NCBI GenBank assembly: GCA_963693365.1
Contig: CAVNZM010000005.1
Location: 10,749,728-10,813,727 of the forward strand
Length of the DNA: 64,000 nucleotides
Origin: Amoebidium appalachense
Taxonomy: Eukaryota; Protista; Ichthyosporea
Reading direction: 5' to 3'
Below, piece after piece: positions 4,605-52,847 of this stretch (position 1 is its first letter; each line of letters opens with the position of its first letter). The notes beneath the pieces are model-generated. The model did no database searches and had not been told where the DNA came from. It saw nothing but the letters and a program-made list of their open reading frames with translations. Position numbers and translations under genes: made by a program.

Positions 4605-6167
4605 GAGGGACCCACCAGTGGCCACCACCCCTTCCCAGTAGCTGCTGATTGGGAGGCGAGGGTGCTGGGGGGGGGGGGGGGGGGGGGAGAGGGGAGAGAG
4701 GAGGGGAGGGGGAGGGGGGGGGGGGGGGAGCCTCACTGACGGGGGGGGGGGGGGGGGGACAACCCCCCGGAGCAGGTGCGTCCCTTCCCAGGGCCCCTTC
4801 ATAGTCCACCTCCACTTGTAGTAGGAGGGGGTCCGCCAACTCACTGACAGGCCTTGCAAGGAATAAATCATTATTATTAAGTCTGTGTGTCGGGTATCAA
4901 ATTGACATGGCATTTGCACTCTCAGAGGCTCTATATCCTCTTTCTAAGTATCTCAAATTATCAGGCTCCGTGACATGGTTACACTATTCAGGTACCCACT
5001 TCGAAATTTATTCCCCCCTTCCCCCCCTTCCGCCCCTCCCTTCCCCCCCCGTCCCCCCCCCGGCCCTGGACGGTGCTCCAGCTTGTTATTCCGCACATGA
5101 CCTCCCCCAAAAATGATTCCAACCACCGCACTTGACACGTGCAAAAAAAAGTAAAGTTGGCCATGCATATGTGTAATGGTGCACTCAAGAGCTCGAGATC
5201 ATATAGCATGCTGACACCATCACTACATTTTTTAATTTTTTTTAATCCCGTTTTGTTCCCGGAGGTACCCCTAGGGGCCCACAGGGGGAACCACCGTCTT
5301 CCACCTAGCACCGACAGTACTCTAGCTAGGGTGCAACGATGCTAGTAGCTAAACTAACACACCTATTAGTAACAATCCTAACTATATGTACACACTTTGC
5401 CCAGGGTATCAACCCCAGCCACGCCGGTGGGTAACACCATCACTACTACACCACTGTTGCATGTTGGAATCACCAAGCCCACACAGTGTCACCGCACACA
5501 CGCATAGCAGTCCGCGGCACACGAGAGTAGGGGTGCACGCACTCTAGCCAGCACTGACGCACGCGCGCTTACACACACACACACACACACACACACGCCC
5601 CCGCACGCACATGCACACGCACATACACTCATTATGAGCACACACACACACACAGTATTACCACAAGCACGCATGACGTGCATAGCTGAGCGCACGGATG
5701 TGCCACATGTACGGAACACTGATACAACCACAAAGCACACGTGCAACATACACCTTAGTGCACCCACACGGGACACACACTAACAGAGAGCCAGGAGAAA
5801 ATTTAGGCAGAACTGCAAGCACGACTCGGAGACACTTGTACACATTTGAAACATGCACACACGCACACGCGCAGTCACGGCTGCACAGCGCGCGCGCGCC
5901 TACACATACACATAAACACCCACAAAAACACGCACACTCGGACTCGCAGGAGTTGCCCCAGTGTAATACGCTCAAAACTTTTGTGGTACATCATGCATAT
6001 GATGCGGGCACTTACACATGGCGCACTTCATCCCTTTTTCAGCCTCTCTCTTGCTGTCGGGATCCTCCTTCCCCCCCCCCCCCCTGTTGGAAGTAGAGTC
6101 CGCTGTGACTAGGGTCGTCGTGGCGCGCTTGGGCGCTGACCCGTTTTTTACTGCTTTCAGTGTGTTA

Positions 6168-6344
6168 ACTCCATGACTGAACTCCATGACTGAACTCCAT
6201 GACTGAACTCCATGACTGAACTCCATGACTGAACTCCATGACTGAACTCCATGACTGAACTCCATGACTGAACTCCATGACTGAACTCCATGACTGAACT
6301 CCATGACTGAACTCCATGACTGAACTCCATGACTGAACTCCATG
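6168..6344. repeat. 13-bp minisatellite (ACTCCATGACTGA)x13 plus a partial unit, inside the LTR
   Basis: Direct count; the equivalent arrays have 14 units (7006-7195), 6 (7533-7618), 8 (8278-8389) and 6 (8968-9053). Confidence 0.97.
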
Positions 6345-6907
6345 TCTGCACCTGGCAGAGACGTGGTTTATATACCCGTGGGGCAGCAGTCTGGAATGTA
6401 ATCCGGATGCCAGGCGCTAATCGGATTGGTTACTTTTATTTAGAGATCTCTGGGACCAGTGAACCAATCGTTTGCAGTCAAAACACAATTGGCAACATTC
6501 CTCAACTATGCAGATGTGCATGTGGTGATCGAGTGTCAGTGTGTGTCTGTGTACACGGAACCAATTGTAAAGCTAACATACACATATTGTGGAGTGAGCG
6601 TAAGTCTGCACTCCAACACCCCTACCCAATTGGAGAAGTGTACACACCACTGTAGAGAAGAGAGAGTGAGTGTGGCTGCTTGCAGGGTAGACCGGGGTGT
6701 GCATTCCACTGTGGTGCGTGCCCCGCCAATGAAGTGGAATACTTGACGTTGATGTCGCAGGCTGCTGCGGATGGAGTTTGTGGAAGCGAAAGTCTCTACT
6801 TCACGGAAATACGCTCGCGGGTGTAGGGTACAGCCTAGAAGTCGGGTTCTGGCTCCTCCGTTCAAGGCGTCGTAGGGGACGTGAAGTTAGAGGCCGCGGT
6901 GTCGTGT

Positions 6908-6922
6908 CTGGGCCCATAACCC
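6908..6922 (-). promoter_or_regulatory. Primer-binding site of half-tRNA-iMet type (also at 7701-7715 and 8473-8487 on +)
   Basis: GGTTATGGGCCCAG directly 3' of the LTR end matches the PBS known from Drosophila copia and related elements primed by the 5' half of initiator tRNA. Confidence 0.82.
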
Positions 6923-7473
6923 TGTTGGAAGTAGAGTCCGCTGTGACTAGGGTCGTCGTGGCGCGCTTGGGCGCTGACCCGTTTTTTACTGCTTTCAGTG
7001 TGTTAACTCCATGACTGAACTCCATGACTGAACTCCATGACTGAACTCCATGACTGAACTCCATGACTGAACTCCATGACTGAACTCCATGACTGAACTC
7101 CATGACTGAACTCCATGACTGAACTCCATGACTGAACTCCATGACTGAACTCCATGACTGAACTCCATGACTGAACTCCATGACTGAACTCCATGTCTGC
7201 ACCTGGCAGAGACGTGGTTTATATACCCGTGGGGCAGCAGTCTGGAATGTAATCCGGATGCCAGGCGCTAATCGGATTGGTTACTTTTATTTAGAGATCT
7301 CTGGGACCAGTGAACCAATCGTTTGCAGTCAAAACACAATTGGCAACATTCCTCAACTATGCAGATGTGCATGTGGTGATCGAGTGTCAGTGTGTGTCTG
7401 TGTACACGGAACCAATTGTAAAGCTAACATACACATATTGTGGAGTGAGCGTAAGTCTGCACTCCAACACCCC

Positions 7474-9073
7474 ATTACATTCCAGACTGCTGCCCCACGG
7501 GTATATAAACCACGGCTCTGCCAGGTGCAGAAATGGAGTTCAGTCATGGAGTTCAGTCATGGAGTTCAGTCATGGAGTTCAGTCATGGAGTTCAGTCATG
7601 GAGTTCAGTCATGGAGTTAACACACTGAAAGCAGTAAAAAACGGGTCAGCGCCCAAGCGCGCCACGACGACCCTAGTCACAGCGGACTCTACTTCCAACA
7701 GGGTTATGGGCCCAGACACGACACCGCGGCCTCTAACTTCACGTCCCCTACGACGCCTTGAACGGAGGAGCCAGAACCCGACTTCTAGGCTGTACCCTAC
7801 ACCCGCGAGCGTATTTCCGTGAAGTAGAGACTTTCGCTTCCACAAACTCCATCCGCAGCAGCCTGCGACATCAACGTCAAGTATTCCACTTCATTGGCGG
7901 GGCAAGCACCACAGTGGAATGCACACCCCGGTCTACCCTGCAAGTAGCCACACTCACTCTCTCTTCTCTAGTGGTGTGTACACTTCTCCAATTGGGTAGG
8001 GGTGTTGGAGTGCAGACTTACGCTCACTCCACAATATGTGTATGTTAGCTTTACAATTGGTTCCGTGTACACAGACACACACTGACACTCGATCACCACA
8101 TGCACATCTGCATAGTTGAGGAATGTTGCCAATTGTGTTTTGACTGCAAACGATTGGTTCACTGGTCCCAGAGATCTCTAAATAAAAGTAACCAATCCGA
8201 TTAGCGCCTGGCATCCGGATTACATTCCAGACTGCTGCCCCACGGGTATATAAACCACGTCTCTGCCAGGTGCAGACATGGAGTTCAGTCATGGAGTTCA
8301 GTCATGGAGTTCAGTCATGGAGTTCAGTCATGGAGTTCAGTCATGGAGTTCAGTCATGGAGTTCAGTCATGGAGTTCAGTCATGGAGTTAACACACTGAA
8401 AGCAGTAAAAAAACGGGTCAGCGCCCAAGCGCGCCACGACGACCCTAGTCACAGCGGACTCTACTTCCAACAGGGTTATGGGCCCAGACACGACACCGCG
8501 GCCTCTAACTTCATTAGAGACTTTCGCTTCCACAAACTCCATCCGCAGCAGCCTGCGACATCAACGTCAAGTATTCCACTTCATTGGCGGGGCACGCACC
8601 ACAGTGGAATGCACACCCCGGTCTACCCTGCAAGCAGCCACACTCACTCTCTCTTCTCTAGTGGTGTGTACACTTCTCCAATTGGGTAGGGGTGTTGGAG
8701 TGCAGACTTACGCTCACTCCACAATATGTGTATGTTAGCTTTACAATTGGTTCCGTGTACACAGACACACGCTGACACTCGATCACCACATGCACATCTG
8801 CATAGTTGAGGAATGTTGCCAATTGTGTTTTGACTGCAAACGATTGGTTCACTGGTCCCAGAGATCTCTAAATGAAAGTAACCAATCCGATTAGCGCCTG
8901 GCATCCGGATTACATTCCAGACTGCTGCCCCACGGGTATATAAACCACGGCTCTGCCAGGTGCAGAAATGGAGTTCAGTCATGGAGTTCAGTCATGGAGT
9001 TCAGTCATGGAGTTCAGTCATGGAGTTCAGTCATGGAGTTCAGTCATGGAGTTAACACACTGAAAGCAGTAAA
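7474..9073 (+). mobile_element. Tandem TRIM array in opposite orientation: truncated LTR 7474-7700, internal, LTR 8003-8472, internal with deletion, LTR 8693-9073 (interrupted; resumes 38277-38343)
   Basis: Reverse-complement copies of the 6085-7469 element with PBS at 7701 and 8473 and PPT at 7991 and 8681; the last LTR breaks at GCAGTAAA and continues after the virus. Confidence 0.88.
9069..9073 (+). repeat. Target-site duplication GTAAA (second copy 38277-38281)
   Basis: Uninterrupted LTR copies read GCAGTAAAAAACGGG; here GCAGTAAA|virus|GTAAAAAACGGG. A 6-bp GTAAAA reading is possible if A9074 is assigned to the host. Confidence 0.85.
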
Positions 9074-9544
9074 ACTACAATGAGGGGCGCGGCACCCTGT
9101 GGATGTGACGTCATCAAAGATGACGTCACATCCACACGGTCCCGCACCCCTCAGGATATGGGATATGTGAATATGAGATATGTGATATCTGTGTACACAT
9201 ATCGCGATATGGCATATATGTGATATGGGTGGATATATGTACATGAGCACGTGCACACACTGTGTGTGTGTGTAAAACACGTGCAGAGCACGTGGTATCA
9301 ATTAAATGATTAAACAATTAAAGAGAGAGAGGGCGGAACACGTGTACGCGTACGTGTACGCGTACATGTGGTGCGTACGTGTACACAAGTGCGGATCAAA
9401 GGAATGCGAAGGTTTGCGCAAGGCGTCCAATGGGAATTCGAATTCTGAATTCCATGTACAAGGCGTCCAATGGTATTACGGATGCGCAGGGCGGCCAATG
9501 ATAATTCGGCTCAAAAAAGCAAATTGCCGCACAAGGCGTCCAAT
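9074..9544 (+). repeat. Left terminal inverted repeat
   Basis: Reverse complement of 37846-38276, with a few substitutions and a ~40-bp extra segment near 9431-9470. Confidence 0.95.
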
Positions 9545-9870
9545 GAGCATTAAGGACAGCACATTCCATCCCCAAGGCGTCCAATGAGCGCCCGGATCGG
9601 TCAATCTGGGTCTCTTATTGGACGCCTTAGGTACACAGGCGGCCGCCGCGACCACACACACACACACACACAAACAAACACGTACCGACGTTGTTTTTGC
9701 AAGATGTTTGCTTTGGAGATTTATTGCACAGGCACAGGCTTGTTATTTTGCATGCTGTTCTTTATTGAGGCGTTGCCCTGGCACAGCCAGGATTAGCCTA
9801 GTAATTATTAAGTAGATTAATACTTGAGATTTATAAGATTACAGCCTGAGATCTAAGGTTACATTTCAAG

Positions 9871-12800
9871 ATGTTCAGAGAGAGCCAGGAAGAGTTTGAA
9901 GATGACCTGTTGCGGGCACTGGATGCCGACCCGCAACAGACCCTGCAAGCCCACCCGTTTCTGCAGGCCATGTTGGCCCCACCACCCCCACCCCCACCCC
10001 TCCCCGGCCTCCCCCCCGCCCCCGCCCCCATCAACCACCCCGATGACCCCCAGATCATTGCCATGCCCGCTGAGGGCAACTGGCAGCTGCGTTCCCGTGT
10101 CGATGACATGCAGGCACGGGGACTGGGTGTGCGTGGTCACACCCTCGAGTACCAACCCCTGCGCACCCTTGACGTCACCGAGTTCCCCCAGTTCTTTGCT
10201 GCCATGCTGTTTGATGCCATTGCCCGTGCAGATGTGCAGGTGGGGGACATGCTGATTGTGCGTATCATCAGCCTGCACGTGCAGGCCAACGGTGTGGACA
10301 ACCAGGTGGGGGATGACGGCAACCCCAATGCCGATGTGACCAACCGTCGTGTGTTTACGGCCGGCCCCATGGACGTGTTCAATGGTGATGTCAACGCCGT
10401 GGTGCTCAAGCTGATGGAGAACATACGTCAACGTACCCAGAGTGCAGCCGAGACCTTCATGGACGGCCGATCCAGCGTGCATCTGACAGTGGCCCGGCCC
10501 AAGGACATGGTGAGGAGGGGGGCCTGCGGCACCCTGTCCACCACCACGGGGGTGAATGCACGGTGGCTGCAGGATCTGGTGGAGGCCAAGGCCGTGGTGG
10601 ATGTGACCGCCCTGGTGCAGGATGCCTGCACCACCGACGACCCACAGGTGACCGGGGAGACCCGCCTGGACCACCAGCAGCTTCACGGCTTTGCCTACGG
10701 CCCCAACTGTGCCCAGCTGTGCCTGGTGTACTGCATGGTGATGTGGCTCAAGAAGGCAGCCAATGGCAACGAGCAGGCCAACCTGCCCACCGAGCACACA
10801 CGCAAGGTGCTGGGCAAGGGGGGCAACCTCATGGATCGCAAGGACCACCACGTGCTGTGCCACCTGCTGACCCCGGGGGATGTGCTGGGGATGGGCAACA
10901 ACGGGGGTCAGATCTTCGGGCTGTGGGGTGTGCAACCTGCTGTTCCCCCCCACAGATCCAAGGAGCCACTTCAAGGACCGCTACCTGCGGAGATTGGTGA
11001 GGGCCACCCACGTGCTGTGGGCCAAGTACGGCCTGCCCGTGCCTGCAGAGGACGGCCTGACGGCGGATGAGCTGGGTGCAGCCGTGGATGCCCTCAACAC
11101 GGCCATTGCCGAGCGGCCCGAGTCAGTCACCCGCCTGCGGTTGGTGGTGGTGGACATGGACAGCAAGGGCAGGGTGCTACGCCGGTACGGGGACCTGAGC
11201 ACGGCCCTGCCCCCCGGCAAGCTGTGCACCATGTACATGGCCCACTCCCAGAAGCTGGGGCACTTCACGGCCATCACCTCGAGTGTCAGCACGACCATCG
11301 AGCGCCTGCGGCACGACAACCACACGGGGGAGGCACGTCGGAGCCTCAGCACCTGCTTCCACTGCAACCAGACCGTGCAAGCCAAGAACATGGGGGTGCA
11401 CCGTTGTGTGAACCGGTGTGAGAACTGTGGATCAAAGGGGGACCGCAACGACCAGGCCAACGCCTGTGTGTGGACCCCCGAGCGCCGTCTGCAGCTTGCA
11501 CGGGCAGGGGAGGAGGCATGGCCTTACCGTTGTGACGACTGCTGTGGCCTCTTCCCTTCAGCCAAGTGCATGGCCAACCACAGCACCAGGCTCAAGGGGG
11601 CAGGAGCCGGGGCCAGTGGCAAACGGCAATCCTTCTGCGACAACGTGTTCTGGTGCCGGTTGGCCACGTGCACCCACGGCCTGCAGGGGTACAGGGTGGT
11701 GGGCAGTGGGGATGATGCCCGCAGGGTGTGTGTGTCGGGCAACCCTGCCGGCCGGTTCATCTACAAGTTCAAGTACGCCAGCGTGTGCCGGCTACGTCGG
11801 TTGCACACCGCCCAGGAGCAAGGGGGGTACGATGCAGGTGCAGATGCAGGAGCCAACGACGAGGGGGAGGGCTGGGGCTGGGGCACGGACACGGGGGAGG
11901 ACTCGGATGCCGAGGATGCCGACTCAGCCCCCCCACCCAGCCTTGCCGACTCGTCGGACGACGAAGGTGACGATGATGACAACGGCGATGGCATCGACCT
12001 CATGCAGATGTCTGAGGGGGAGGGGGATGACGGGGGTGAGCACGGGGGCAAGAAGAAGGACGACACGTGGACACAGCACCTGTGCACCGACTACGACTGC
12101 AAGGGCTGTGGGGGGTACATGCCCGGCAACCACACGTGCCTCATACGCAGCAAGCGTGACCAGCGACGTGTGTACATGTGCACGCACACGGATGCAGACG
12201 GCACGGCGTGCGGCAGGGTGGCGTGCTACTCCAACGAGCATGGGCAGGGGGAGGAGGGGGAGGGGGAGGGGGATGGGTCACCTGCACGGCAGAGGGCCAG
12301 GGTGGATGGTGCCGACGGCAGGGTGGGTGCACACGTGTGCAAACGGCACGTGCCCGACGACGATGGCAGCAGGGGGCCGTGGAAGCAGACCCGGCAGCCC
12401 ATCAGGGACATCGTGCTGGACTTCGAGACCATGCCCGTGCCCGCCCCCGACCACACGGCCGAAAACCCCCACTTCATCCACATCGTGTACCACGCCGTGG
12501 CCATGTACGTCGAGCCAATGGACGGCCAGCCCTCAACCCCCATCGTCTTCTGGCCGGAGGACTCGGCCGACGGCAAGAACGGGTGGGATGTGCTGATGGA
12601 GGACCACCACCACGTGATTGACAAGGTGGTGGCAAGTGGCTGTTCGACACACCAACCCATGCCGGCGGCCGGGTGTACTGCCACAACGGCAGCGGCTTTG
12701 ACTTCCACTTTGTGACCAAGAGGGTGGTGGGCAGCCAGGACTACGTGTACGTGCCCATCATGGCCAACAGCAAGATCAAGTCCTGCCGTATACGCCACTA

Positions 12801-15490
12801 CGTCAAGAATGCCGGTGCACCAGCAGCCCCCGTGCCCATGCGGGTGGATGGTGATGGTGATGGTGATGGTGATGGTGCCGATGGCCATGGCCATGGCCAC
12901 GATGGCAGATGGCCATGGTGATGGCCATGGTGATGGCCATGGTGATGTGCAGCAGGCAGCAGCAGCAGCAGGCACCGGCCGGAAGAGGAGGCACGGGGGG
13001 CAGAGGGGGGACGGCAGCCGCACGACGGTGGTGGAGCTGACGTTCGTGGACACCCTCAACTTCCTCACCATGTCGCTGTCGGACGCCGGCAAGGCCATGG
13101 GGTGCCAGGAGACGAAGGGCCACTTCCCCCACCGTGCAGCCACCTTTGCCAACTTCAAGGCCGGCCACATCCCCTTCCCCGGGCCCGAGGACTTTGGGGC
13201 CCAGGACATGAAGCCCAAGCAGCATGCTGCCTTCATGCAGTGGTGGCGGGAGGAGCAGGCACGGCTGCAGGGGCAGGCACCGGCGGGCACGTGCTACGAC
13301 ATTGCCCAGCAGTGCGAGGACTACTGTGTCAAGGATGTGGTGCTGCTGCAGCAGGTGGTCAAGGCCTTCATGTCGAAACTCATCGAGCTGACGGGCATCG
13401 ACCCCTTCACGTGCGTCACCCTTGCTTCCCTCGCCATGCACTTCTGGATCACGCAGGCCATGCCCAAGGACGTGGCCGTGATGCGTGACCAGACCATGGG
13501 CAACGTGAACAGCAGCAAGAAGGAGCAGGAGTACATCGACTACGTCACCCACGGCCTGGGGGTGGGGCCAGACGACGTTGCACGGCACGTGGCCACCGGG
13601 TACGACCCCCACGGCAGGGCCACGGCCGATGCCAAGGCCACCCACGACGACGGCACGTGCACCCACTACTTCTTCCACGGGTGTGTGTTCCATGGGTGCC
13701 CCGACTGCAACAGGCACGAGGATCTGACGATGAGGGTGGTGAAGAGGCCGGCCAGGGAGGCCTACGACAGCACCATGGCCCACGAGAGGTACATCCGTGC
13801 CCAGGGGCACAAGGTGCAGAGCATGTGGGAGTGCAGGTGGGACAGGCTGAGGCAGAGCCCCGAGGTCAAGGCTGCCCTTGCAGCACAGGCGGCACGGAGG
13901 GAGGGCACCGGCAGGGTGGCCCCCGTGCCCACGGGCCCGGTGCAGTTCCGTGATGCCTTCTTTGGTGGCCGTACGGAGGTCATCACCCGTCACATCGAGG
14001 TCAAGGAGGAGGACTGGCCGGAGGCCGGGCTCAAGTACGTCGACGTCACCTCCCTCTACCCGTACGTGATGATTGACAAGTACATGCCGGTGGGCAAGTC
14101 ACAGTGGTTCACGTCACTGCCCATCAAGACGGAGGACCACCCCACGGCCATCGTCACGGATGCCCAGGTGCTGAAGGAGAGGCTCGACAAGACGTGCCGT
14201 ATGACCCCCGGCTCCCCCCAGGCCAGGACCAAGGGGTACTTTGGTGTTGCACGTGTGAGGGTGCTCCCCCCCAAGGACCTGTTCATCCCCGTGCTGCCTG
14301 TGCGTATGACGGGTGCCCAGGGGTACGACAAGCTGGGCTTTGTGCTGTGCCGGGCCTGCAGCAGCAAGGAGGAGGCCCGGGCCACCTGCATGGACGAGGA
14401 CGGCAACCCCAGGGTACGTGAGCACACACTGTGCACACACACGGACGAGGAGAGGGCACTGGTGGGCACGTGGACGACGGAGGAGCTGAAGGTGGCCGTG
14501 CGTGATGGGTACACCATCCTCGACGTGTACGACGTGGTGCACTTCAAGAAACGCACCAAGAACCTCTTCCGGAAGTACGTGCAGACGTTCCTGAAGGTGA
14601 AGCTCACCAGCACCACCGTAGATCCAGCCGACATCCCCGCCCTCGTGCACCTGTTCAAGGAACACTACGGCATCACGGTGGCCGCCCACGAGTTCGAGCC
14701 CAACCCGGCCCTGCGTACCATCAGCAAGCTGTTTCTGAACAGCCTCTGGGGCAAGCTGGTGCAGAGGGCAGGGCTGGACACCATCGAGTTTGTCGACGAC
14801 GTCGACAGGCTGAGGCTGCTGGTGACGAACCCCAACCTGCTGGTGCTCGACGTCGAGCCCATCGGCGAGCAGAGGGTGGCCATCAAGTACCGGCCCAAGA
14901 AGGAGACGGCCCCACCCCCCTCCTACGCCAACATTGCCATCGGCACGTTCGTGACGGCCCATGCCCGGCTGCACCTCTACGGGGCCCTCCGGTCCCTCTC
15001 CCCCCAGCAGGTGGTGTACATGGACACCGACTCCATCGTCTACCACTACGACAGCAGGGTGCCCCACCTCAGCCACAACATCGACTCCACCAACGGGGAC
15101 TTGCTGGGCAACTGGAAGAACGAGACGTCGACACCCATCGTCGAGTTTGTGGGGGTGGCCCCCAAGACGTTTGCCTACCGCACCCAGGACGGCAAGACCG
15201 ACGTGAAGGTCAAGGGCATCACCCTGTCCCGCCGGGCGGCCGACATGGTGAACCTCCCCAGCCTGCGCATGCTGGTGCACGGCGAGCTGCCGAGTGTGAG
15301 CGTCACCAACCACCGGCTGCTGCGGGAGCCCGTGCCCGGGGTCCCCCACAACTACCACCTGGCCAGCAAGGACCAGCGCAAGACACAGTCGGGGGCGTTC
15401 GACAAGAGGGGGGTGTTCGAGGCGGCCGACGGCAGTGTACGCAGCTACCCCATCGGGTGGGCGGCACCGGAGGGGAACCTGCAGTTTTGA
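9871..15490 (+). pseudogene. polB: Protein-primed family B DNA polymerase with long N-terminal extension, split by 3 apparent frameshifts (~10920, ~12632, ~12908); true decay versus homopolymer/assembly error is unresolved
   Basis: Motifs lie collinearly over successive frames: putative OTU-like Cys (PNCAQLCL) in ORF 9871; His (LGHFTAI), CxxC fingers and ExoI (IVLDFET) in ORF 10880; ExoII (YCHNGSGFDFHF) in ORF 12673; ExoIII and polymerase motifs in ORF 12809. Confidence 0.8.
12809..15490 (+). CDS. polB: pPolB catalytic segment (exonuclease C-part, VSR-like insert, palm)
   Basis: FVDTLNFL, YCVKDV, FHGCVFHGCPDC, FFGGRTE, YVDVTSLYPYVM, LCRAC...CTHTDEERALVGTWTTEEL, KLFLNSLWGK, YMDTDS, KVKGI are Maverick/adintovirus-type pPolB signatures. 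Confidence 0.96.
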   Translation: MPVHQQPPCPCGWMVMVMVMVMVPMAMAMATMADGHGDGHGDGHGDVQQAAAAAGTGRKRRHGGQRGDGSRTTVVELTFVDTLNFLTMSLSDAGKAMGCQETKGHFPHRAATFANFKAGHIPFPGPEDFGAQDMKPKQHAAFMQWWREEQARLQGQAPAGTCYDIAQQCEDYCVKDVVLLQQVVKAFMSKLIELTGIDPFTCVTLASLAMHFWITQAMPKDVAVMRDQTMGNVNSSKKEQEYIDYVTHGLGVGPDDVARHVATGYDPHGRATADAKATHDDGTCTHYFFHGCVFHGCPDCNRHEDLTMRVVKRPAREAYDSTMAHERYIRAQGHKVQSMWECRWDRLRQSPEVKAALAAQAARREGTGRVAPVPTGPVQFRDAFFGGRTEVITRHIEVKEEDWPEAGLKYVDVTSLYPYVMIDKYMPVGKSQWFTSLPIKTEDHPTAIVTDAQVLKERLDKTCRMTPGSPQARTKGYFGVARVRVLPPKDLFIPVLPVRMTGAQGYDKLGFVLCRACSSKEEARATCMDEDGNPRVREHTLCTHTDEERALVGTWTTEELKVAVRDGYTILDVYDVVHFKKRTKNLFRKYVQTFLKVKLTSTTVDPADIPALVHLFKEHYGITVAAHEFEPNPALRTISKLFLNSLWGKLVQRAGLDTIEFVDDVDRLRLLVTNPNLLVLDVEPIGEQRVAIKYRPKKETAPPPSYANIAIGTFVTAHARLHLYGALRSLSPQQVVYMDTDSIVYHYDSRVPHLSHNIDSTNGDLLGNWKNETSTPIVEFVGVAPKTFAYRTQDGKTDVKVKGITLSRRAADMVNLPSLRMLVHGELPSVSVTNHRLLREPVPGVPHNYHLASKDQRKTQSGAFDKRGVFEAADGSVRSYPIGWAAPEGNLQF

Positions 15491-15954: not shown

Positions 15955-16839
15955 ATGGACGAAGACACGTTGCTAAGTATGGTGGCCAACACCACGGACC
16001 CTGAGAAGCTGCTAGACCTGTGCCCCTTCCTCTACGACATGTACTGCAACACCACCACACAGCCACGGCCACGGCCACAGACACAAGGGTGCTGGTGGGC
16101 ATACTGCAAGGAGAGGGAGACGTGCACGGGGGAACACGACGAATACGAGCACGACGGAGGGGACCAGGAGTACGTGTACGAGGAGGGGGGAGGGAGGGGG
16201 GAGGGGGAGGGGGAGGAGGAGGAGGAGGAGGACTGGGTGTACGACGGGAGGGGGTGGGAGGGCAGCGACGGGGAGGGGAGGAAGACGTATGAGGGGTGCA
16301 CGGCCTTCTGGGACAGAAAGAGGTCACAGCCATACAGACACATTAACCACTTCAAGCAGCTGCTGCAGTCGGTGCAGGGCCTGAATGCGAGTATGGGTGA
16401 CATGCAGGAGGGGGTGGTGGCAGCATTCAGGGGCGTGCAAGGCATAGAGAACGCCGACCAGGCAAGGAGGGTGCTGAGACAGAGCAAACTCACCCAACAC
16501 TACACACGCGTGCCTTACATACTTAACAGGTTGTACGGGCACCCCCTCCCCAGGTTTACGTGCGAGCAGTTGGAGGTCTTGACGGGCATGTTTAAGTTTT
16601 GCTTGTCGTGGCACCGGAGACACAAGGAGGACACACGGAAGAACTTTGTGGGGTACCCCTTCCTGTTGGTGAAAATGGTAGGGTTAGTGCGTGGTATGGA
16701 CGCGGGAGTAATAGCCAGGCTGGTGCCCACGGTCAAAAGCAAAGTGACTAGAGTAAAGAGCGATAGGGTGTGGGCACGGCTGGAGAGGGACCTTAAAAAC
16801 TACCACATGCTAGTGGAACATAACATGTTCTGCCTGTAG
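15955..16839 (+). CDS. Poxvirus VLTF3-like late transcription factor homolog
   Basis: YRHINHFKQLLQSVQG...SKLTQHYTRVPYILNRLYGHPLP...RKNFVGYPFLLVKM...VKSKVTRVKSDRVWARLERDL follows the NCLDV VLTF3 pattern (Y.R.NHF; YY..IPYI; RKNFL.Y.Y.L.K; LKS..K...D.IW); ATG at 15955. Confidence 0.82.
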   Translation: MDEDTLLSMVANTTDPEKLLDLCPFLYDMYCNTTTQPRPRPQTQGCWWAYCKERETCTGEHDEYEHDGGDQEYVYEEGGGRGEGEGEEEEEEDWVYDGRGWEGSDGEGRKTYEGCTAFWDRKRSQPYRHINHFKQLLQSVQGLNASMGDMQEGVVAAFRGVQGIENADQARRVLRQSKLTQHYTRVPYILNRLYGHPLPRFTCEQLEVLTGMFKFCLSWHRRHKEDTRKNFVGYPFLLVKMVGLVRGMDAGVIARLVPTVKSKVTRVKSDRVWARLERDLKNYHMLVEHNMFCL

Positions 16840-20685: not shown

Positions 20686-22425
20686 TTAAGCCTCCACCGT
20701 CACCTCACGGGCACCGGACAGCACCAGCACGTTCTCGTGGTGCACGAAGGTGTCGAGGGTCAGGTCGTCCTGAACCGTGGGTTCCCCGACCCCGGCGGAG
20801 AACTTTTCCGTGTTCAGGTGCAGCAGAATGGGGGTGGCGTCGGAGCTGGTGTCGAGCCCAGAGTACAGGTCACGGTCCCTCTCGAGGTCCAGGGCGATCA
20901 TGAACTGCTTGTCGGGCCAGGACGTGGAGTTGTACATGCAATCGGCCGTGACGTCACCCAAGAAGTAGAGGGCCTTAGCCAGCTCGGCCCATGCCTCGGC
21001 GCAGTTGTTCTTCGACACACGAATTTCGTCGAGGGGCTTCTGGTAGGGGCCTATCTTGATCTGGTAGCTCGTTATGTTGCTGCGTTCCGACCTAAACGAC
21101 TCGTAGCCGGCCTGGGCCCACGTGTTGCCGTTACGAACGAGGGAGAGCAGGGACTTGACGTTTCTCCCCCGGAACGAAATGTGCAGGTCGGCAGGGCTGC
21201 CCCCCTTGACGTAGCTCTGGAAGTGGGTGAACGTGCTGTAGGGAATGTACACGTTCTTCTCCATCAAGGCCTTTTCGAAGCCGGCCGTGTAGACGGCGTT
21301 CCACTCGATGATTTCGCAGTGGAGGACGGGGTTGATGATCTCGTAGGCGACGTCCTTGAGCCAATTCTCGTTCTCGGTGGGCACGTACAACACTTGGTTT
21401 GCCTCACCCAACGACAGCTCGATCTGCACCTCCCCCATGTACGACAGCGGGAGGTACCGGCCGGACCGCATGAGGCCGAGCTTGAGCTGGTGAATGTAGG
21501 TGAAACCGTCGGTGGCGTCGATTTGGGCCTGGATGTTGGCCTGGTGGGGAGGCCACTTGGCGGCGCGGGCGGTGTAGTCGAGGAAGCGGTCGGCAGGAAT
21601 GCCGTCCTTGCCCGGCAGCTTGTCGACATCGGGGGCAAACAGGGCCTCGTTGGGCAAGGGGTCCGTCCCCCTCGCCTTCTCGATGCCAAAGAGCTTTTTG
21701 AGGGGGTCGGGGTTGAAGCACGAGTACTGGGCGGCCGTGGTGGTGTTCCACTTGTCCGCATACTCCCAGTCGGCGTCCTGCGGGCTGTACGTCCCGTGCA
21801 TGCGGCCGGCGGGGCTGTTGCCGTAGTCGGCCGACGACAGGAACCGTTCCAGGTTGATCATCAGGTGGTTGTAGCCTGAAATGTCCTCGACGGTGGTGCC
21901 GTTGATGGACACACGGGCCCGTTCAAACGGTGCGGCCGAGGAGCAGAGGTGGCCCCCCATCATGGCCATCCCCTCCAGGTTGCGGACCTTGAGGGGGAAA
22001 ATGTCGGTTGCCGCCGCGTTGTTGTTGAGGGTGTTGTTGGCCAACGTCTCGCTCTGGGGCACGGTGGTGCCCTCGTAGTCCCTTATGGTGGTGTCGATCT
22101 CGAGGGGGTGGGCCAGCTGACCGGGGAGGGGGAACCTGCGCAGCCTCTCCACCTTCACGCCCACGTACTCGGGGGCGTTGGGCACGTTGGCCTTGAACTG
22201 GAACGTCATGTAGGAGTTGAGACAGTCCAGGAAGCCCACGGCCGGCAGGGAGAACCGAATCACGCGCTGCCCCTTTGAGCTGTACGTCGAGCCGGTCACC
22301 GGGTAGGTCTTGACCGTCGACCGGCGGTTGATGTGGCTGAGCTCCACGGGCGAGTACGTGCCGGCGTCCGTCAGCTTGTGGTAGGCCATGTTGAGGGGCA
22401 CGGAGGCGTCGTAGGGGGCTGCCAT
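20686..22425 (-). CDS. Major capsid protein (double jelly-roll, PLV type); alternative ATG at 22455
   Basis: ~580 aa; N-terminal VPLNMAY...TYPVTGSTYS...VIRFSLPAVGFLDCLNSYMTFQF, FERARVSINGTTVEDISGYN, YLPL and C-terminal FMIALDLE...SGLDT are typical PLV MCP motifs; next to the packaging ATPase. Confidence 0.88.
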   Translation of the reverse strand: MAAPYDASVPLNMAYHKLTDAGTYSPVELSHINRRSTVKTYPVTGSTYSSKGQRVIRFSLPAVGFLDCLNSYMTFQFKANVPNAPEYVGVKVERLRRFPLPGQLAHPLEIDTTIRDYEGTTVPQSETLANNTLNNNAAATDIFPLKVRNLEGMAMMGGHLCSSAAPFERARVSINGTTVEDISGYNHLMINLERFLSSADYGNSPAGRMHGTYSPQDADWEYADKWNTTTAAQYSCFNPDPLKKLFGIEKARGTDPLPNEALFAPDVDKLPGKDGIPADRFLDYTARAAKWPPHQANIQAQIDATDGFTYIHQLKLGLMRSGRYLPLSYMGEVQIELSLGEANQVLYVPTENENWLKDVAYEIINPVLHCEIIEWNAVYTAGFEKALMEKNVYIPYSTFTHFQSYVKGGSPADLHISFRGRNVKSLLSLVRNGNTWAQAGYESFRSERSNITSYQIKIGPYQKPLDEIRVSKNNCAEAWAELAKALYFLGDVTADCMYNSTSWPDKQFMIALDLERDRDLYSGLDTSSDATPILLHLNTEKFSAGVGEPTVQDDLTLDTFVHHENVLVLSGAREVTVEA

Positions 22426-22438
22426 GTTGGTGGTGTGT

Positions 22439-32257: not shown

Positions 32258-32615
32258 GTGTGACCTGCCCATTCTGGAAAAACCATCCGTCTTGAAAAAA
32301 AACAGAGACGCCCCACCAACCAGCCACCGCGAAAACTGGCCATTTTGGGATGATTGCGCAAACAGGGGACGCCCCACCAACCAGCGACCGCCAAAACTAG
32401 CCCAATTTGGTCGCCTTCCAAATCAGGCTAATCCTCCATGTGCGGACCCCAGGCCCAGGTCCGGATCAGGCCCGTGCGGGTCGGTTCGGGCCGGCCTGGT
32501 CAGATTTGGGTCGCGTCGACCCGTTAACGACCCGGCCCGACCCGACCCGGGCTAATCTGGACCGGCCCGTGGCCCGCGAAATTTTCACAGCACACAGGTG
32601 CGGGACTGTGTGATC

Positions 32616-33161
32616 ATGGGGCTGGGCAGCTGCTGCGGGGTGTACAAGGTCACGCAGGACAAGAGGAAGGCCGGAGTGGACACTGACAAGGTGCAGACAC
32701 CAGCATGGGTGCTGGATGCACTCGAAAAGGAGTTTGGCGCACTCAATGACCCCTGCCCCATCACCTGGCGGGAGGGGGAGGACCCTTGCGCACTCACAGA
32801 CGACGACGTGTGGTCCACCGAGAAAATAAACTATGTCAACCCTCCCTTCTCTGAGATTCCCCCATTTTTACGCATGGCCATACGAATGTACATATCCAAG
32901 GGTAGAAAGAGCGTGCTGCTCGTGCCTGCACGCACGGAGGCACGCTGGTTCCATGACCTGGCCTTCAGGTACGCCGCAGAGATACGCATCCTGAGGGGTA
33001 GGATCAAGTTTGAGGGGTTCAAGAGGCCATCGCCAGAGGGCGTGTGCCTGCTTTTGTTCACAGAGCCTCAGCCTGTCGGTGGCCCGCGTGTAGTGTCGTG
33101 GATGCCTGAGGCATACCCGCGCAGCTCAAAGGCAGGGGCCGTGTTGGGGCTGGATTTCTAG
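32616..33161 (+). CDS. Phage-type DNA N6-adenine methyltransferase (Dam-like)
   Basis: QTPAWVLDALEKEFG..DPC, W....YVNPPFS, VLLVPART...WF and EIRILRGRIKF are signatures of the small phage Dam family. Confidence 0.9.
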   Translation: MGLGSCCGVYKVTQDKRKAGVDTDKVQTPAWVLDALEKEFGALNDPCPITWREGEDPCALTDDDVWSTEKINYVNPPFSEIPPFLRMAIRMYISKGRKSVLLVPARTEARWFHDLAFRYAAEIRILRGRIKFEGFKRPSPEGVCLLLFTEPQPVGGPRVVSWMPEAYPRSSKAGAVLGLDF

Positions 33162-33242
33162 CTTAATGACTAAGATCTACTAGACTAAGTAGGGTCTAGA
33201 TCATAAAAATGTGTGTTAGAGTGTATGTAGTGCGTGCACACC

Positions 33243-33506
33243 ATGGCCAACACCTACCAAATCGTGCTGAACGACCAGTTTCAGCCCCTCACTGCGCGTA
33301 CGTCAAACGCCACGCACACAGACTTTAGCTACTATGGCCAGCAGGCGATGGCACAGGCCGTTGCGGACAAGATATGCCCGCACGGTACCCGCCACCCCTT
33401 CTTCCTCAAACCAAGCACCATGGCAGGGTCTGCAGCAGGCCGATTTGCTCGCCCCAGACCCACCTTTGCGGCACTCAGGCGTGCACATGGCAGGCCCATG
33501 CACTGA
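33243..33506 (+). CDS. Small hypothetical viral protein
   Basis: ATG in ACCATGG context, preceded by the AAAAATGTGTG motif. Confidence 0.5.
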   Translation: MANTYQIVLNDQFQPLTARTSNATHTDFSYYGQQAMAQAVADKICPHGTRHPFFLKPSTMAGSAAGRFARPRPTFAALRRAHGRPMH

Positions 33507-33603
33507 CCGTTAGTGTACGTAGTAGGCCATGGCCAAGCGGGCAATTGGCAACCAAAAATAAAAATAATGTGCATGCATAAGTAAACGTGCAAGTCACGTC
33601 ACC

Positions 33604-34185
33604 ATGGGGGTGTCATCGCAAGGCAGGAGCGGCAACACGCGTGTCATCTACGTGCAGAACCGGCCAAACAAGGCCTCAGAGGTAGCCAAGTGGGTGGGGG
33701 CCCTGGCGGGCGGTGCTGCCTTGGGGGCAGGGGGGTACTATGCATGGAAGCACAAGGGGGACATTGCGAGGGGGGTGGGCAACTACATGTACAACAAGGC
33801 TGCGGATGCTGCCACCTACACTGCAGGGAAGGCGGGGGAGGCGGGGGGGACGGTGTTCAAGGGCCTCAAGGGGGTAGCGCGTGCCACAGGCGATGCTGCC
33901 ATGCAGGGCACGCAGCGTGCAGGGCAGGGCGCGCAGAATGGTGCATTCAGTGCGTGGAAGACCCTGAGGAATGGCACGAGGGATGCGGGCAACTACCTGC
34001 TGCACAACACCCAGGATGCGTTGGGATATGGTCCTTATAACTTGAATGCTGCAGGCACACGCACGGGAAACAGCTACGAGTGGAGAGGGGGTGGAGGGGG
34101 CGGTGCGCAGGTGCTTGTCGGCGGTAAGCCCTACGTCTGGCCGCCAGCCAGGTCGCCAAACGTATCGGGACGCGGCATCCTCTAA
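33604..34185 (+). CDS. Gly/Ala-rich protein with a hydrophobic segment and amphipathic helices (possible membrane-active virion protein)
   Basis: Starts MGVSS; WVGALAGGAALGAGGYYAW followed by A/G/K amphipathic repeats. Confidence 0.7.
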   Translation: MGVSSQGRSGNTRVIYVQNRPNKASEVAKWVGALAGGAALGAGGYYAWKHKGDIARGVGNYMYNKAADAATYTAGKAGEAGGTVFKGLKGVARATGDAAMQGTQRAGQGAQNGAFSAWKTLRNGTRDAGNYLLHNTQDALGYGPYNLNAAGTRTGNSYEWRGGGGGGAQVLVGGKPYVWPPARSPNVSGRGIL

Positions 34186-34470
34186 TGGAACCTTCCGTTC
34201 ATGGTAAGTGTGCAGGGAAAAACCGTTGGCGGGCGGTGCGAGCGGCCAATCAAATTTTGTAGAATTTGTTGACTTGCATTCCATTGGCGCCTCCCCTGCG
34301 CTCCTATTGGACGCCTAGGGCAACAGGAGTCACCGAATTTTGGAGCACGGTAGCGTGTGTGCACCGGAGGGCACAAAAGCCACCTGCAAACGTTCCTTCT
34401 TCAAACACTTTTTCTTATATTCTAAGCCACTCTAGCCTGGTCTTTTTGCAAGCAGCGAACTTTGGAAACC

Positions 34471-35616
34471 ATGGCAGACCTCTCCTTCCTGCCCCCTCTA
34501 GATCTAGACGATGCTGATGTTCTTGCTGCCGCCGCAGCAGCCATTTCTGTGCCAGCCCGCAGGCCTCCTCCTGGCCGCACCTTCTCCTGGCATCTCAAAG
34601 ATTTGGATCTTGACACTGTTCTGCTTCAACCCTTCTACGCATCCTACCGCACGCTTGCTGAGGGGTATGCAGCACAGCCCAGTGTTTCCGCCAACGCAGC
34701 GTCCTTCCTCCTCTCCGCCAAGAAAGGTGACTTCTTCGCTGGCTATGATGCAGGGGGCGAAGTCTACTTCCAAAAACGCTTCACGGGTCTAGATGACTTT
34801 GATGGGGCATGGCTCCCTGAGATGCTGGTGCGTGGTACCATCTCTGAGCCTGCAGAACTGGCTGAACTGCACGGCAAGTCGCTTTTGGCAACACTCGCGT
34901 GCCGCAACGCCCTCATGCTCAAGGGGGTGGCTGCTGCTGTGGTAGACATCCTCCTACCGCAGTTCACAGAGCATGAGAGATCCACTAGGCACAAGGTAGA
35001 GACAGACCCTCAGTTGGTTGGCAACTACATGCAGAGGTACCTGGAGGAGATAGAGGCCAACTGGGAGCCCATCGTCGGGATGTGCAAGGCAGGACTCACT
35101 CCCCACAGGGAGAGAGAGGTGGCCCGCCACTTGGCTCGTGTTGTTGCTGGCTTCCTGCAGACCATGGTGGCCACTGCAAAGGCAGCCAAGTTGAAGTCCA
35201 CGCCCCTCTTCAAAGGGGTCGCCATGGATGTCCTCCATGACATGCAGGCATTGCTGCGTGGGGTTGCGAATGAGCGTATGTATTGTGCAGGTGAGAAGAT
35301 TGTGTTTGCAGGGCTGATCAAGAAAAACATCCACAAGGAGGCACCATCACGGCGCAAGTCCGGCACGTTCATCGACATTGCCCCCAAGGAGAAGGAAAAC
35401 CTTGCCCCCCTCCGCAGCAGCAGCACCAACAGCAACACCCCCTACAACAACAACAACAACATCATGACGGTCGGTGCCCCCTACTTCTACGGTAGGACCC
35501 GGGTGCCTAACTTACTTCGTACCTCAGCGGCACCGCCCCCTCAAGACTGTGAACCAAGGCTACATGGGCTAGTGCACAGGATAGGGGGGCTGTGCCCTAA
35601 ACTTTGCCATTTTTAA
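34471..35616 (+). CDS. Hypothetical alpha-helical viral protein (~380 aa)
   Basis: Long non-repetitive ORF, ACCATGG start, preceded by CCAAT-box cluster 34245-34316. Confidence 0.75.
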   Translation: MADLSFLPPLDLDDADVLAAAAAAISVPARRPPPGRTFSWHLKDLDLDTVLLQPFYASYRTLAEGYAAQPSVSANAASFLLSAKKGDFFAGYDAGGEVYFQKRFTGLDDFDGAWLPEMLVRGTISEPAELAELHGKSLLATLACRNALMLKGVAAAVVDILLPQFTEHERSTRHKVETDPQLVGNYMQRYLEEIEANWEPIVGMCKAGLTPHREREVARHLARVVAGFLQTMVATAKAAKLKSTPLFKGVAMDVLHDMQALLRGVANERMYCAGEKIVFAGLIKKNIHKEAPSRRKSGTFIDIAPKEKENLAPLRSSSTNSNTPYNNNNNIMTVGAPYFYGRTRVPNLLRTSAAPPPQDCEPRLHGLVHRIGGLCPKLCHF

Positions 35617-35703
35617 TTTTTTTAGTAAAGTACCTTAAAGTTTCAAGTTGAGCATGCCATGGCCTCATTAACATAGACACCGTTGTGATTTGTGTATACA
35701 TAG

Positions 35704-36330
<627 letters not shown>

Positions 36331-36709
36331 TGGTGTAACTTCTAAGTGTTGCTACCTAAAAGTGCGAAAAGAGATGATTGTGAAAATGTTTAAGAGTTTT
36401 TTCTAAGTTTTTTCTTCACAAAAAAACGAACGAAAACGAGACGAGACTGAGAGAGCCGACAGCTGATAGAGTGCACATGGGAGAAAAAAGTGTATACGTA
36501 ATATTACGTAACATTCAATTTCGCTTGATTTCATTGGCTCATAAGTTACGCAAAGTTCAAGTTGGCGCAATCATTTACTCTCTCACTCATGTACGTACTC
36601 AGTCAACTCAGTCGCGGCGGCACACAGTGTGTTTTTTTTTTTGGGAAGAAGTTTATTTCGTGGCATCACCCGGAGATAAAGAGATTCTGAATAAACAGAC
36701 ATGTGCCTA

Positions 36710-37627
36710 TTACATCCTGAGCATTTTGGCCTTGTCCTCCCCAGGCATGGGCGTGCCAGCACGCTTAGCCTGCCCCATGTCTACATCACCCCCCTCCCCC
36801 TCACTACCCGCACCATCACTGACCAACTCCATCAGACCATCTAACTCAAACACCTGAACCTTGCGGGCAACGAGCTTGGTGCGCACAGTGTTGTTTTTCT
36901 TGTTGTAGATGACGCTGGTGGCGGCAGCAGACACCCATGCAGTAACCTCACGGCACTTGGCACGCTGGGAGTTCATAAACTCCACAAACTCATCCACAGA
37001 GGCCGCGTTGTTGCCCAGCTTGAAGAGGCAGGGGTTGCGGCCAGTGGGGTTGGGCAATTCCACCGTCACGTTGAAGTAGGTGTCGCCCAGTGCCCCCTCC
37101 ATGTCCGCCTTGCTGACGGGGTTGGCACCCAGCACCTCGTACAGGTTGGGGCTGTGTCTGGACCACAGGCTGCTGCTGGTCTTGACGGCAACGGTGTCCA
37201 GATCAACATCCTTGAGCATCTCGTGGTCCTTGTGCATCCACAGCACGTCCTTGGCCATGCTGCACACGTAGGGCCACAGGCCAACGGCGTAGGCCACCTC
37301 AAAGGGCTCAGGGTGGCGCTGGGACTTGATCTTGATTGTGGTTTTGTCGTAGGCAGACAGGTGGGTGCCCAGTTCAATCAACATCTGCCCGTTGATGTTG
37401 ATGTTGGGCAGGTTGTACAGCTGCACCACCAGCACGTCGTTCATGACCCAGGGTGCACCCATGGTGGCCTTGCCCACACCGTTGAGGAACACCTCCTTGT
37501 ACAGCACCATCTTGGCCCCCTCAACGCTGCTGTTGATGTTTTCTTTGCCACTGCTTGCCGCGGCGATGCTGGTCCTTTTGACGGTGGACAGACCAGTCAT
37601 TTGACGCAGCTGGGTTGGCTTGACCAT
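36710..37627 (-). CDS. 305-aa viral protein, candidate OB-fold single-stranded DNA-binding protein
   Basis: ORF well supported by codon bias; SSB function inferred only from C-terminal beta strands (VTAWVSAAATSVIY...KLVARKVQVF) and an acidic tail. Confidence 0.6.
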   Translation of the reverse strand: MVKPTQLRQMTGLSTVKRTSIAAASSGKENINSSVEGAKMVLYKEVFLNGVGKATMGAPWVMNDVLVVQLYNLPNININGQMLIELGTHLSAYDKTTIKIKSQRHPEPFEVAYAVGLWPYVCSMAKDVLWMHKDHEMLKDVDLDTVAVKTSSSLWSRHSPNLYEVLGANPVSKADMEGALGDTYFNVTVELPNPTGRNPCLFKLGNNAASVDEFVEFMNSQRAKCREVTAWVSAAATSVIYNKKNNTVRTKLVARKVQVFELDGLMELVSDGAGSEGEGGDVDMGQAKRAGTPMPGEDKAKMLRM

Positions 37628-37845
37628 TTTGCTGTTGCTTGGGGGGTGTGGTGAACGTTACTGTGGTGTGCACCTCGACTGTGACTGTCTGGCTCATGTT
37701 TGGTTGGTGAGATGTTGCCTGTGTGCGGCTGTTTATGTACACGGCGGTAGGATGCAGGGTGCGTTTCTGGCCAATGAGGACCGTAATCCCTGTTCCCTGT
37801 GCCCTCATTGGACACCTAGAACCACATGTGCCTGTCTAGATTCCG

Positions 37846-38276
37846 ATTGGACGCCTTGTGCGGCAATTTGCTTTTTTGAGCCGAATTATCATTGGTCGCC
37901 CTGCGCACCCGTAATACCATTGGACGCCTTGCGCAAACCTTCGCATTCCTTTGATCCGCACTTGTGTACATGTACGCACCACATGTACGCGTACACGTAC
38001 GCGTACACGTGACACGCCCTCTCTCTCTCTTTAATTGTTTAATCATTTAATTGATACCACGTGCTCTGCACGTGTTTTACACACACACAGTGTGTGCACG
38101 TGCTCCTGTACATATATCCACCCATATCACATATATGCCATATCGCGATATGTGTACACAGATATCACATATCTCATATTCACATATCCCATATCCTGAG
38201 GGGTGCGGGACCGTGTGGATGTGACGTCATCTTTGATGACGTCACATCCACAGGGTGCCGCGCCCCTCATTGTAGT
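37846..38276 (-). repeat. Right terminal inverted repeat
   Basis: Reverse complement of 9074-9544. Confidence 0.95.
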
Positions 38277-38343
38277 GTAAAAAACGGGTCAGCGCCCAAG
38301 CGCGCCACGACGACCCTAGTCACAGCGGACTCTACTTCCAACA
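38277..38343 (+). mobile_element. 3' remainder of the TRIM LTR interrupted by the virus
   Basis: GTAAAAAACGGGTCAGCGCC...CTACTTCCAACA matches the LTR end at 7634-7700; followed by a C run. Confidence 0.95.

Positions 38344-42611: not shown

Positions 42612-52847
<10,236 letters not shown>

Follow-up and report, generated by a model that had tools for sequence, protein, structure and literature searches.

What has removed CGC and GCG triplets from a virus integrated in the DNA of Amoebidium appalachense? The question arises from a 64,000-nucleotide (64-kb) stretch, here called the window, which carries a Polinton-like virus with a protein-primed DNA polymerase B (pPolB). An earlier note had counted 29 CpG dinucleotides in 360 nucleotides (nt) of the pPolB region, only one of them in a CGC or GCG context, and had proposed that the virus evolved under, or to evade, trinucleotide-specific methylation by its host. 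According to text passages of Sarre et al. 2024 (PMC11244446), CGC/GCG sites in Amoebidium are methylated to ∼70% and other CpGs to ∼20%. By default, active gene bodies carry the CGC/GCG mark; other CpGs reach high methylation only where transposons and viral insertions are silenced, and silencing correlates with such methylation. We conclude that the loss in the viral core is probably, in the main, a footprint of context-specific deamination of 5-methylcytosine (5mC), common to the virus and to host gene bodies. Throughout, a CpG preceded by G or followed by C is called a target CpG, and the rest are called other CpGs. The features on which the argument turns are as follows.

13861–14220, + strand: stretch counted in the earlier note, within pPolB; 29 CpGs, 1 in CGC/GCG
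9074–38276: integrated Polinton-like (MELD) virus, 29.2 kb, inside a TRIM- or long-terminal-repeat (LTR)-like repeat
9871–31888: core zone with CGC/GCG-specific CpG loss, used for the shuffle tests; 340 of 1377 CpGs in CGC/GCG
9871–15490, + strand: pPolB region; PF03175 at E 8e-37 in its last piece
20686–22455, − strand: probable major capsid protein (MCP), so labelled from its size and its position beside the ATPase
22439–23242, − strand: A32-like packaging ATPase; PF04665 at E 3.7e-9; least depleted of the larger core genes
42612–52847, + strand: host ALG2 gene, 10 exons; gene-body control
6082–9073: TRIM/LTR-like repeat array; transposon control

Loss of CGC and GCG across the viral core

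A recount at 13861–14220 reproduces the earlier figures exactly. At the GC content of this stretch (0.65) a first-order Markov model predicts 12.9 CGC and GCG triplets, and a share of 1 in 29 has a binomial probability of 6e-9 against a rate of 0.54 and of 0.002 against the core rate of 0.255. The tile overlapping the stretch is the second lowest among 58 tiles of 360 nt (median 0.27). The stretch is the extreme of a wider effect that is seen across the element and spans 22 kb of the 29.2-kb insertion.

Between 10001 and 31800, CGC/GCG is the most depleted trinucleotide, with 422 found and 797 expected (ratio 0.53, z −13.3). The earlier note had suggested a codon-controlled comparison. When this is made by synonymous shuffling of 15 core gene segments (6159 codons), the depletion persists, and the ratio is not near 1: the coding core holds 338 target CpGs, compared with 580±14.5 expected from 300 shuffles, the lowest of which has 546. 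Other CpGs in the coding core are not depleted (987, compared with 966±14 in the shuffles). All 15 segments fall below their own shuffle mean, the pPolB pieces most strongly (z −5 to −9). The effect had been described as weaker in the MCP and ATPase genes; the ATPase is only weakly depleted (z −1.7), and depletion of the MCP is still clear (z −5.0).

The loss affects both strands (CGC 202/371 and GCG 164/276, found over expected after codon shuffling), and non-coding DNA of the viral core is likewise affected (30 vs 109, ratio 0.29). Because non-coding core DNA shows a like depletion, codon choice is not the cause, and a pure codon-usage effect is rejected by this loss together with the synonymous shuffles. 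Over the whole viral core the observed/expected ratio (o/e) is 0.35 for target and 1.15 for other CpGs. Restriction-site avoidance is also rejected, as there is no additional loss at the level of four bases (GCGC 31 vs 27.9 expected, GATC 23 vs 25.8); the figure for CGCG, 16 vs 24.6 expected, is consistent with two overlapping targets. The dinucleotide GpC is somewhat under expectation in the element (0.84).

Host DNA in the same window

Host controls were drawn from the 64-kb window. Joined at AG/GT borders, the ten ALG2 exons give a single open frame of 443 codons. Exon 3 matches ALG2-family proteins (6 matches among 12 candidates), with Sphaeroforma first (65%) and a Creolimax-type identifier third (63%), and by these matches the host is an ichthyosporean. 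In the full coding sequence of ALG2 there are 17 target CpGs (o/e 0.36) and 49 other ones (o/e 0.93), and the target share of 17/66 is indistinguishable from that of the coding core, 338/1326 (Fisher p 1.0).

This result removes the contrast, drawn in the earlier note, between a virus poor in CGC/GCG and a host rich in it, which leaned on one outlier exon and a transposon. ALG2 exon 3 is indeed rich, with 9 target CpGs out of 16, but these are 9 of the 17 in the gene, and in the remaining nine exons the figure is 8 of 50. The TRIM LTR had also been called rich; the array (53 target and 57 other CpGs) is down in both classes, with o/e 0.70 and 0.60 after masking of simple repeats, and because both classes have been lost there it is not CGC/GCG-rich in absolute terms. 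With ALG2 as depleted as the virus and TRIM down in both classes, the contrast is rejected.

After masking, the target-to-other ratio is 0.58, 0.63 and 0.23 in three sets of introns and 0.84–1.17 in intergenic and TRIM DNA; pooled gene-body introns (53:139) differ from intergenic plus TRIM DNA (159:229) at p 0.002. In a DnaJ-like host gene the first exon (1488–1731, − strand) is target-rich, 13 vs 3, whereas the neighbouring intron is depleted, 3 vs 19, as expected if promoter-proximal DNA is unmethylated. Overall, the difference between host gene bodies and transposon fits the published methylation map.

Two segments, 6082–9073 and 38277–38340, contain almost identical TRIM/LTR-like units, some in each orientation, together with a 13-nt tandem repeat; the virus lies within one such unit.

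Mutation products and a probable share of selection

After codon shuffling, CGC and GCG are the two most depleted triplets, and the largest gains are in TGC, CAC, GTG and GCA, which rank 1, 2, 3 and 5 of 64 (CAA is fourth) and are the four triplets that one C-to-T or G-to-A change at the CpG makes from CGC or GCG. At four-fold degenerate target sites the share of T among non-C endings is raised (Mantel-Haenszel odds ratio (OR) 2.9, p 1e-5), also when Gly and Arg are taken alone (OR 2.8, p 2e-4), and it is not raised at other CpGs (OR 1.37, p 0.23). Where G has been lost, the share of A is raised (OR 2.0, p 0.002). The synonymous transition index of the core is 0.16 on both strands, below all 117 of 117 pPolB loci used for comparison (lowest 0.27, median 0.97).

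An equilibrium model that compares target with other CpGs gives a hypermutation factor of 4.6 (bootstrap 2.3–9.0) on the C side and 4.7 (2.0–9.3) on the G side, with an avoidance term S of ∼0 on the G side. The fitted value of ∼4.7-fold is near the published 70:20 methylation ratio, a match to be read with caution, since passages of PMC12994199 report that average methylation is no predictor of CpG mutation rate across species. An earlier fit used a no-CpG baseline; on the C side it had selection alone beating mutation alone, and both together beating either. With that baseline general CpG avoidance is confounded with the context effect; the model was refitted against other CpGs. Depletion is weaker for CpGs within Arg codons, where deamination alters the protein (0.41 vs 0.62 expected), than for those in synonymous phases (0.26 vs 0.51 and 0.20 vs 0.38 expected).

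Some junction biases lie outside this pattern. In the core genes (9871–30917) the Val codon GTC is used at 10 of 120 positions before C, compared with 67 of 189 before A or T, and the Leu codon CTC at 29 of 123, compared with 87 of 173; GA is depleted at codon junctions of the core and TCC is scarce. The scarcity of these Val and Leu codons before C and the GA depletion are unaccounted for by the CpG model.

Unrelated pPolB loci

Controls comprised 127 distant pPolB loci, 47 viral and 80 metagenomic (the best 80 of 404, from part of a metagenome collection). In the 123 with at least 50 CpGs, rho(CGC) has a median of 1.04 and a minimum of 0.57, with three loci below 0.7; the element stands at 0.53. 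The control closest in gene content, L007 (1–13340), which has a pPolB, a VLTF3 and a capsid relative (26%), shows general CpG loss (o/e 0.46) without CGC/GCG bias (rho(CGC) 1.18), and L094, with a GC content of 0.61, has a rho(CGC) of 1.08.

The pPolB-rve-A32 contig L064 (1–5024) is low in CGC/GCG and also in CCGG, GCGC and ACGT (0.31, 0.15 and 0.46), a pattern more like palindromic-site avoidance, and L063 is similar. Three loci, L097, L114 and L125, have the opposite bias, with a strong excess of CGC/GCG (rho 1.8–2.3); the closest ATPase relatives among the control loci are in L097 and L114.

Two compositional zones

The CGC/GCG-specific loss ends abruptly within the element. The features needed here are:

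31889–37627: right arm, in which CpGs of every context are lost; contains the integrase tail, Dam, + strand open reading frames (ORFs) starting at 33243, 33604 and 34471, and a − strand ORF at 36710–37627
31205–32257, + strand: rve-type integrase; rve_3 at E 0.011
32616–33161, + strand: Dam-type N6-adenine methyltransferase; PF05869 at E 1.6e-13
9074–9660: left terminal inverted repeat region; 27 target and 14 other CpGs (o/e 1.71 and 0.68), CGC/GCG not depleted
37700–38276: right terminal inverted repeat region, containing the inverted arm; 22 target and 13 other CpGs

The target share jumps from 340/1377 to 137/215 at a changepoint at 31888 (range 31812–31900; log-likelihood gain 61.5), which falls in the 3′ part of the integrase gene. 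The synonymous odds of other CpG against no CpG are 0.12 and 0.10 in the right arm; for the core they are 0.45 and 0.53, and for ALG2 0.25 and 0.41. In composition the right arm is like the TRIM array, and the core is like a gene body that has lost still fewer of its other CpGs. Because the right arm shows a transposon-like decay of all CpGs, the two zones likely differ in methylation history: from its composition, the core has likely stayed mostly outside all-CG silencing, and the arm has likely been inside it or came from an element that had long been silenced. The zones are not explained by distance from the ends, since the first gene by the left repeat already has the core pattern. The boundary at 31812–31900 is a possible module-swap point. 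Diverged copies of the element carry the right-arm genes too.

It may be, though we advance the idea only tentatively and think it doubtful, that the element preserves past methylation states of its host as a fossil with two zones. The core, 22 kb with the replication and capsid genes, would record mostly unsilenced nuclear DNA, in which a sequence-specific host enzyme methylates CGC/GCG de novo regardless of chromatin, and the integrase-tail/Dam arm would come from, or lie in, an all-CG-silenced state. If so, such footprints would date the CGC/GCG methylation system, would show replication of such viruses in the Amoebidium nucleus rather than persistence as a silenced provirus, and would allow hosts to be assigned to free Polinton-like viruses.

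Origin of the footprint

The preferred explanation supposes a host methyltransferase with a preference for CGC/GCG that has methylated the virus lineage over a long time, so that the viral DNA itself would have been methylated. Deamination of the methylcytosines would then have cost about half of the CGC/GCG CpGs of the core and produced the gain in C-to-T products. For most of its history the core would have been exposed to the default regime, with methylation at CGC/GCG only, and not silenced; the past of the right arm would have been more silenced and transposon-like. A further part of the loss is probably due to selection against mutation-prone codons.

Several observations weigh against this explanation or limit it. 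In a second host gene the putative exons, from an incomplete gene model, show no context loss (19 vs 21), and the intron signal appears only after simple-repeat masking, the unmasked ratios of the two larger sets being 1.36 and 1.00. The CpG-less control for the G-to-A comparison is also positive (Val, Leu and Gly before C, OR 4.5), and because of this the G side is less clean and junction biases of unexplained origin exist. For the C side, a model that adds avoidance to mutation (S ∼1.0, 0.55–1.53) has a better fit than one with mutation only. Conserved Arg residues are encoded by AGR in 5 of 10 cases when they follow G and in 0 of 14 when they follow another base (p 0.006; from two alignments, one made with 49 of 150 listed matches), which mutation alone does not predict. 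Among the 80 variant rows listed of 2615 from other copies (40 each of 2101 and 514), 6 of 28 core transitions are at target sites, against a background of 12.7%, too few to show hypermutation directly. Three of the 113 control loci with enough coding sequence (L064, L102 and L109) reach the shuffle ratio of the core, at 0.52–0.57, and GC content is at least 0.5 in only 7 of the 127. Within the element and its surroundings, differences between repeat copies (terminal inverted repeat, fibre, proline-rich and TRIM) are too few or too poorly aligned to give direct evidence of mutation. Because three of the 113 loci match the core, CGC/GCG scarcity alone is no host marker, and the gain of products and the parallel in host DNA bear the argument. 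Taken together, the products, the fits, the Arg-codon pattern and the AGR use lead us to conclude that mutation is clearly involved and that there is probably some selection, which we would prefer to read as selection against mutation-prone essential codons.

Could the virus instead have been selected directly to avoid CGC/GCG, escaping host methylation or a methyl-reader? The avoidance term on the C side speaks for this, as do the recovery as T of only about half of the C lost at four-fold sites, the shunning of the G/CG junction by conserved Arg residues (5:5 vs 14:0) and a core ratio (0.30) lower than that of the two host intron sets at 0.58 and 0.63. The Arg result is, however, explicable by selection against mutation-prone essential codons, S is ∼0 on the G side, the excess of products speaks for mutation, and ALG2 is depleted to an equal degree. 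Moreover, silencing in Amoebidium tracks methylation outside CGC/GCG, in the passages of PMC11244446, yet the core keeps those sites; evasion is undercut because the sites linked to silencing are the ones retained. As the main driver it seems unlikely to us. Of the earlier interpretation, the part that stands is evolution under trinucleotide-specific host methylation, to which the ichthyosporean host, the adintovirus-like gene set and the C-to-T products all point. Its other half, evolution in order to evade, is weakly supported at best, given that a host gene and host introns have undergone the same loss and that the silencing-linked CpGs are kept.

A generic compositional or codon-pair bias, such as GpC scarcity or context-dependent polymerase errors, would make the match to the Amoebidium motif a coincidence. 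The three control loci with ratios as low as the core, the GpC deficit and the further junction biases (GA and TCC scarcity) make this conceivable. The triplets gained in L064, L109 and L063, when followed in detail, are nevertheless other than TGC, CAC, GTG and GCA; L007 and L094 show no such bias, and the host signal follows the division between gene body and transposon. We regard such a chance match as distinctly unlikely. Least probable of all is a footprint left during viral replication by a methyltransferase or a nuclease that came from a helper giant virus or from the element itself. Text passages of PMC11244446 place 10 of the 18 Amoebidium DNA methyltransferases (DNMTs) within giant-virus insertions, with specificity unknown, and most Polinton-like viruses (PLVs) carry methyltransferases (MTases), suggested in passages of bioRxiv 10.64898/2026.06.19.733378 to protect against giant-virus restriction; the present element encodes a Dam-type enzyme. 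That enzyme, its sole recognised MTase, is of the adenine family, four-base sites show no added loss (GCGC and GATC, with CGCG explained by overlapping targets), and host introns and ALG2 show a like loss, so that this source is highly improbable.

If context-specific 5mC deamination is the main cause, the consequences go beyond this element. Methylation of CGC/GCG in Amoebidium is so far known as a present-day snapshot only, and a scar left in a resident virus and, in the host, in a gene and in introns would mark it as both old and mutagenic. By such a scar, DNA that has lived under default methylation could also be told, from sequence only, from DNA that has lived under silencing. This bears on a point left open in the passages of Sarre et al. 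(PMC11244446), whether the insertions are dead silenced cargo or a lineage still replicating in the host. The surprise is limited because virus type and methylation motif are both published.

Organisation of the element

The element is bounded by inverted arms of 205 nt, 98% complementary (9074–9278 and 38072–38276), and is flanked by a 5-bp duplication, GTAAA, at 9069–9073 and 38277–38281. A 73-nt imperfect palindrome lies near each end (9081–9153 and 38197–38269), and five 25-nt repeats at 9419–9597 contain CCAAT; these are candidate origin or promoter elements. Its remaining labelled genes are:

15955–16839, + strand: VLTF3-like transcription factor; PF04947 at E 7.9e-10
24831–25976, − strand: possible minor capsid protein, a 381-residue ORF labelled by inference; no Pfam match
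25975–27498, + strand: coiled-coil, fibre-like ORF with 126-nt repeats and coiled-coil-type Pfam matches

The labels DnaJ, TRIM, fibre and minor capsid were given by inspection or come from the earlier note, independently of family searches.

In the present copy pPolB is spread over three frames, 9871–11070, 10880–12715 and 12809–15490, counted separately above. The two upstream frames are presumably parts of pPolB, whose closest relatives have 31–38% identity, and the split may be due either to decay or to an assembly error. At 12823–12927 contigs from two public runs have a shorter, differing sequence. The public runs contain near-identical copies of the element and copies diverged by ∼12–14%, spanning core and right-arm genes. 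Viral contigs yielded no close relatives through either the ATPase or the probable MCP, nor did metagenome contigs through the MCP.

The probable MCP has one homologue (P0001) at 52% and a 26% match in L007; its fold had no Pfam or PDB match, and a predicted model has a pLDDT of 29. The rve_3 match of the integrase is weak alone, and the assignment rests on homologues, one of which (P0158, 46%) matches rve at E 0.00097; a PDB search with the integrase gave no match. The 305-residue ORF at 36710–37627 has unnamed nearest Atlas clusters, mostly from Basidiomycota (0.92–0.93, low recognition), and an Atlas search with another right-arm ORF gave no match. A Pfam scan of the 21 element ORFs found no adenain-type maturation protease, although a divergent one could be missed.

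Comparison with known systems

The element shares pPolB, rve integrase, packaging ATPase and terminal inverted repeats with the Adintoviridae and Maverick-Polintons, as described in passages of PMC8502044 and bioRxiv 10.64898/2026.06.19.733378. It differs from the Adintoviridae in that no adenain was found, the probable capsid is not recognisably adintovirus-like, VLTF3 and Dam are present and the host is a protist. Because adenain was not found, we file it as a Polinton-like/MELD virus and not as a strict adintovirus.

Its nearest counterparts are the Amoebidium 'adintovirus' insertions of PMC11244446. In the passages that describe them these are likewise integrated elements of ∼29–30 kb, in an ichthyosporean host, with terminal repeats, VLTF3, Dam and pPolB; they have capsid genes, whereas here the capsid labels are only inferred. 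Silenced insertions are described there as methylated in every CG context. Amoebidium is the only ichthyosporean given there as having DNMTs, a point which, together with the gene set, suggests this genus as host from the sequence evidence itself. The text passages of that paper report methylation levels and contain neither CGC/GCG sequence depletion nor a two-zone composition. We found no literature report of such depletion in Amoebidium or its viruses, although composition may be analysed in Figures S3/S4 of PMC11244446 or in preprint supplements. Both virus type and methylation motif are already in the literature; the sequence footprint and the two zones were not found there.

The closest parallels in mechanism are those described, in the passages seen, for papillomaviruses (PMC4636234) and for eukaryote-wide mutation spectra (PMC12994199), where loss of methylatable CpGs is also ascribed to mutation pressure and is mirrored in the viruses of the host. 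Unlike in those systems, the loss in the present core is limited to the CGC/GCG class, other CpGs are spared, and the pattern changes abruptly within a single element.

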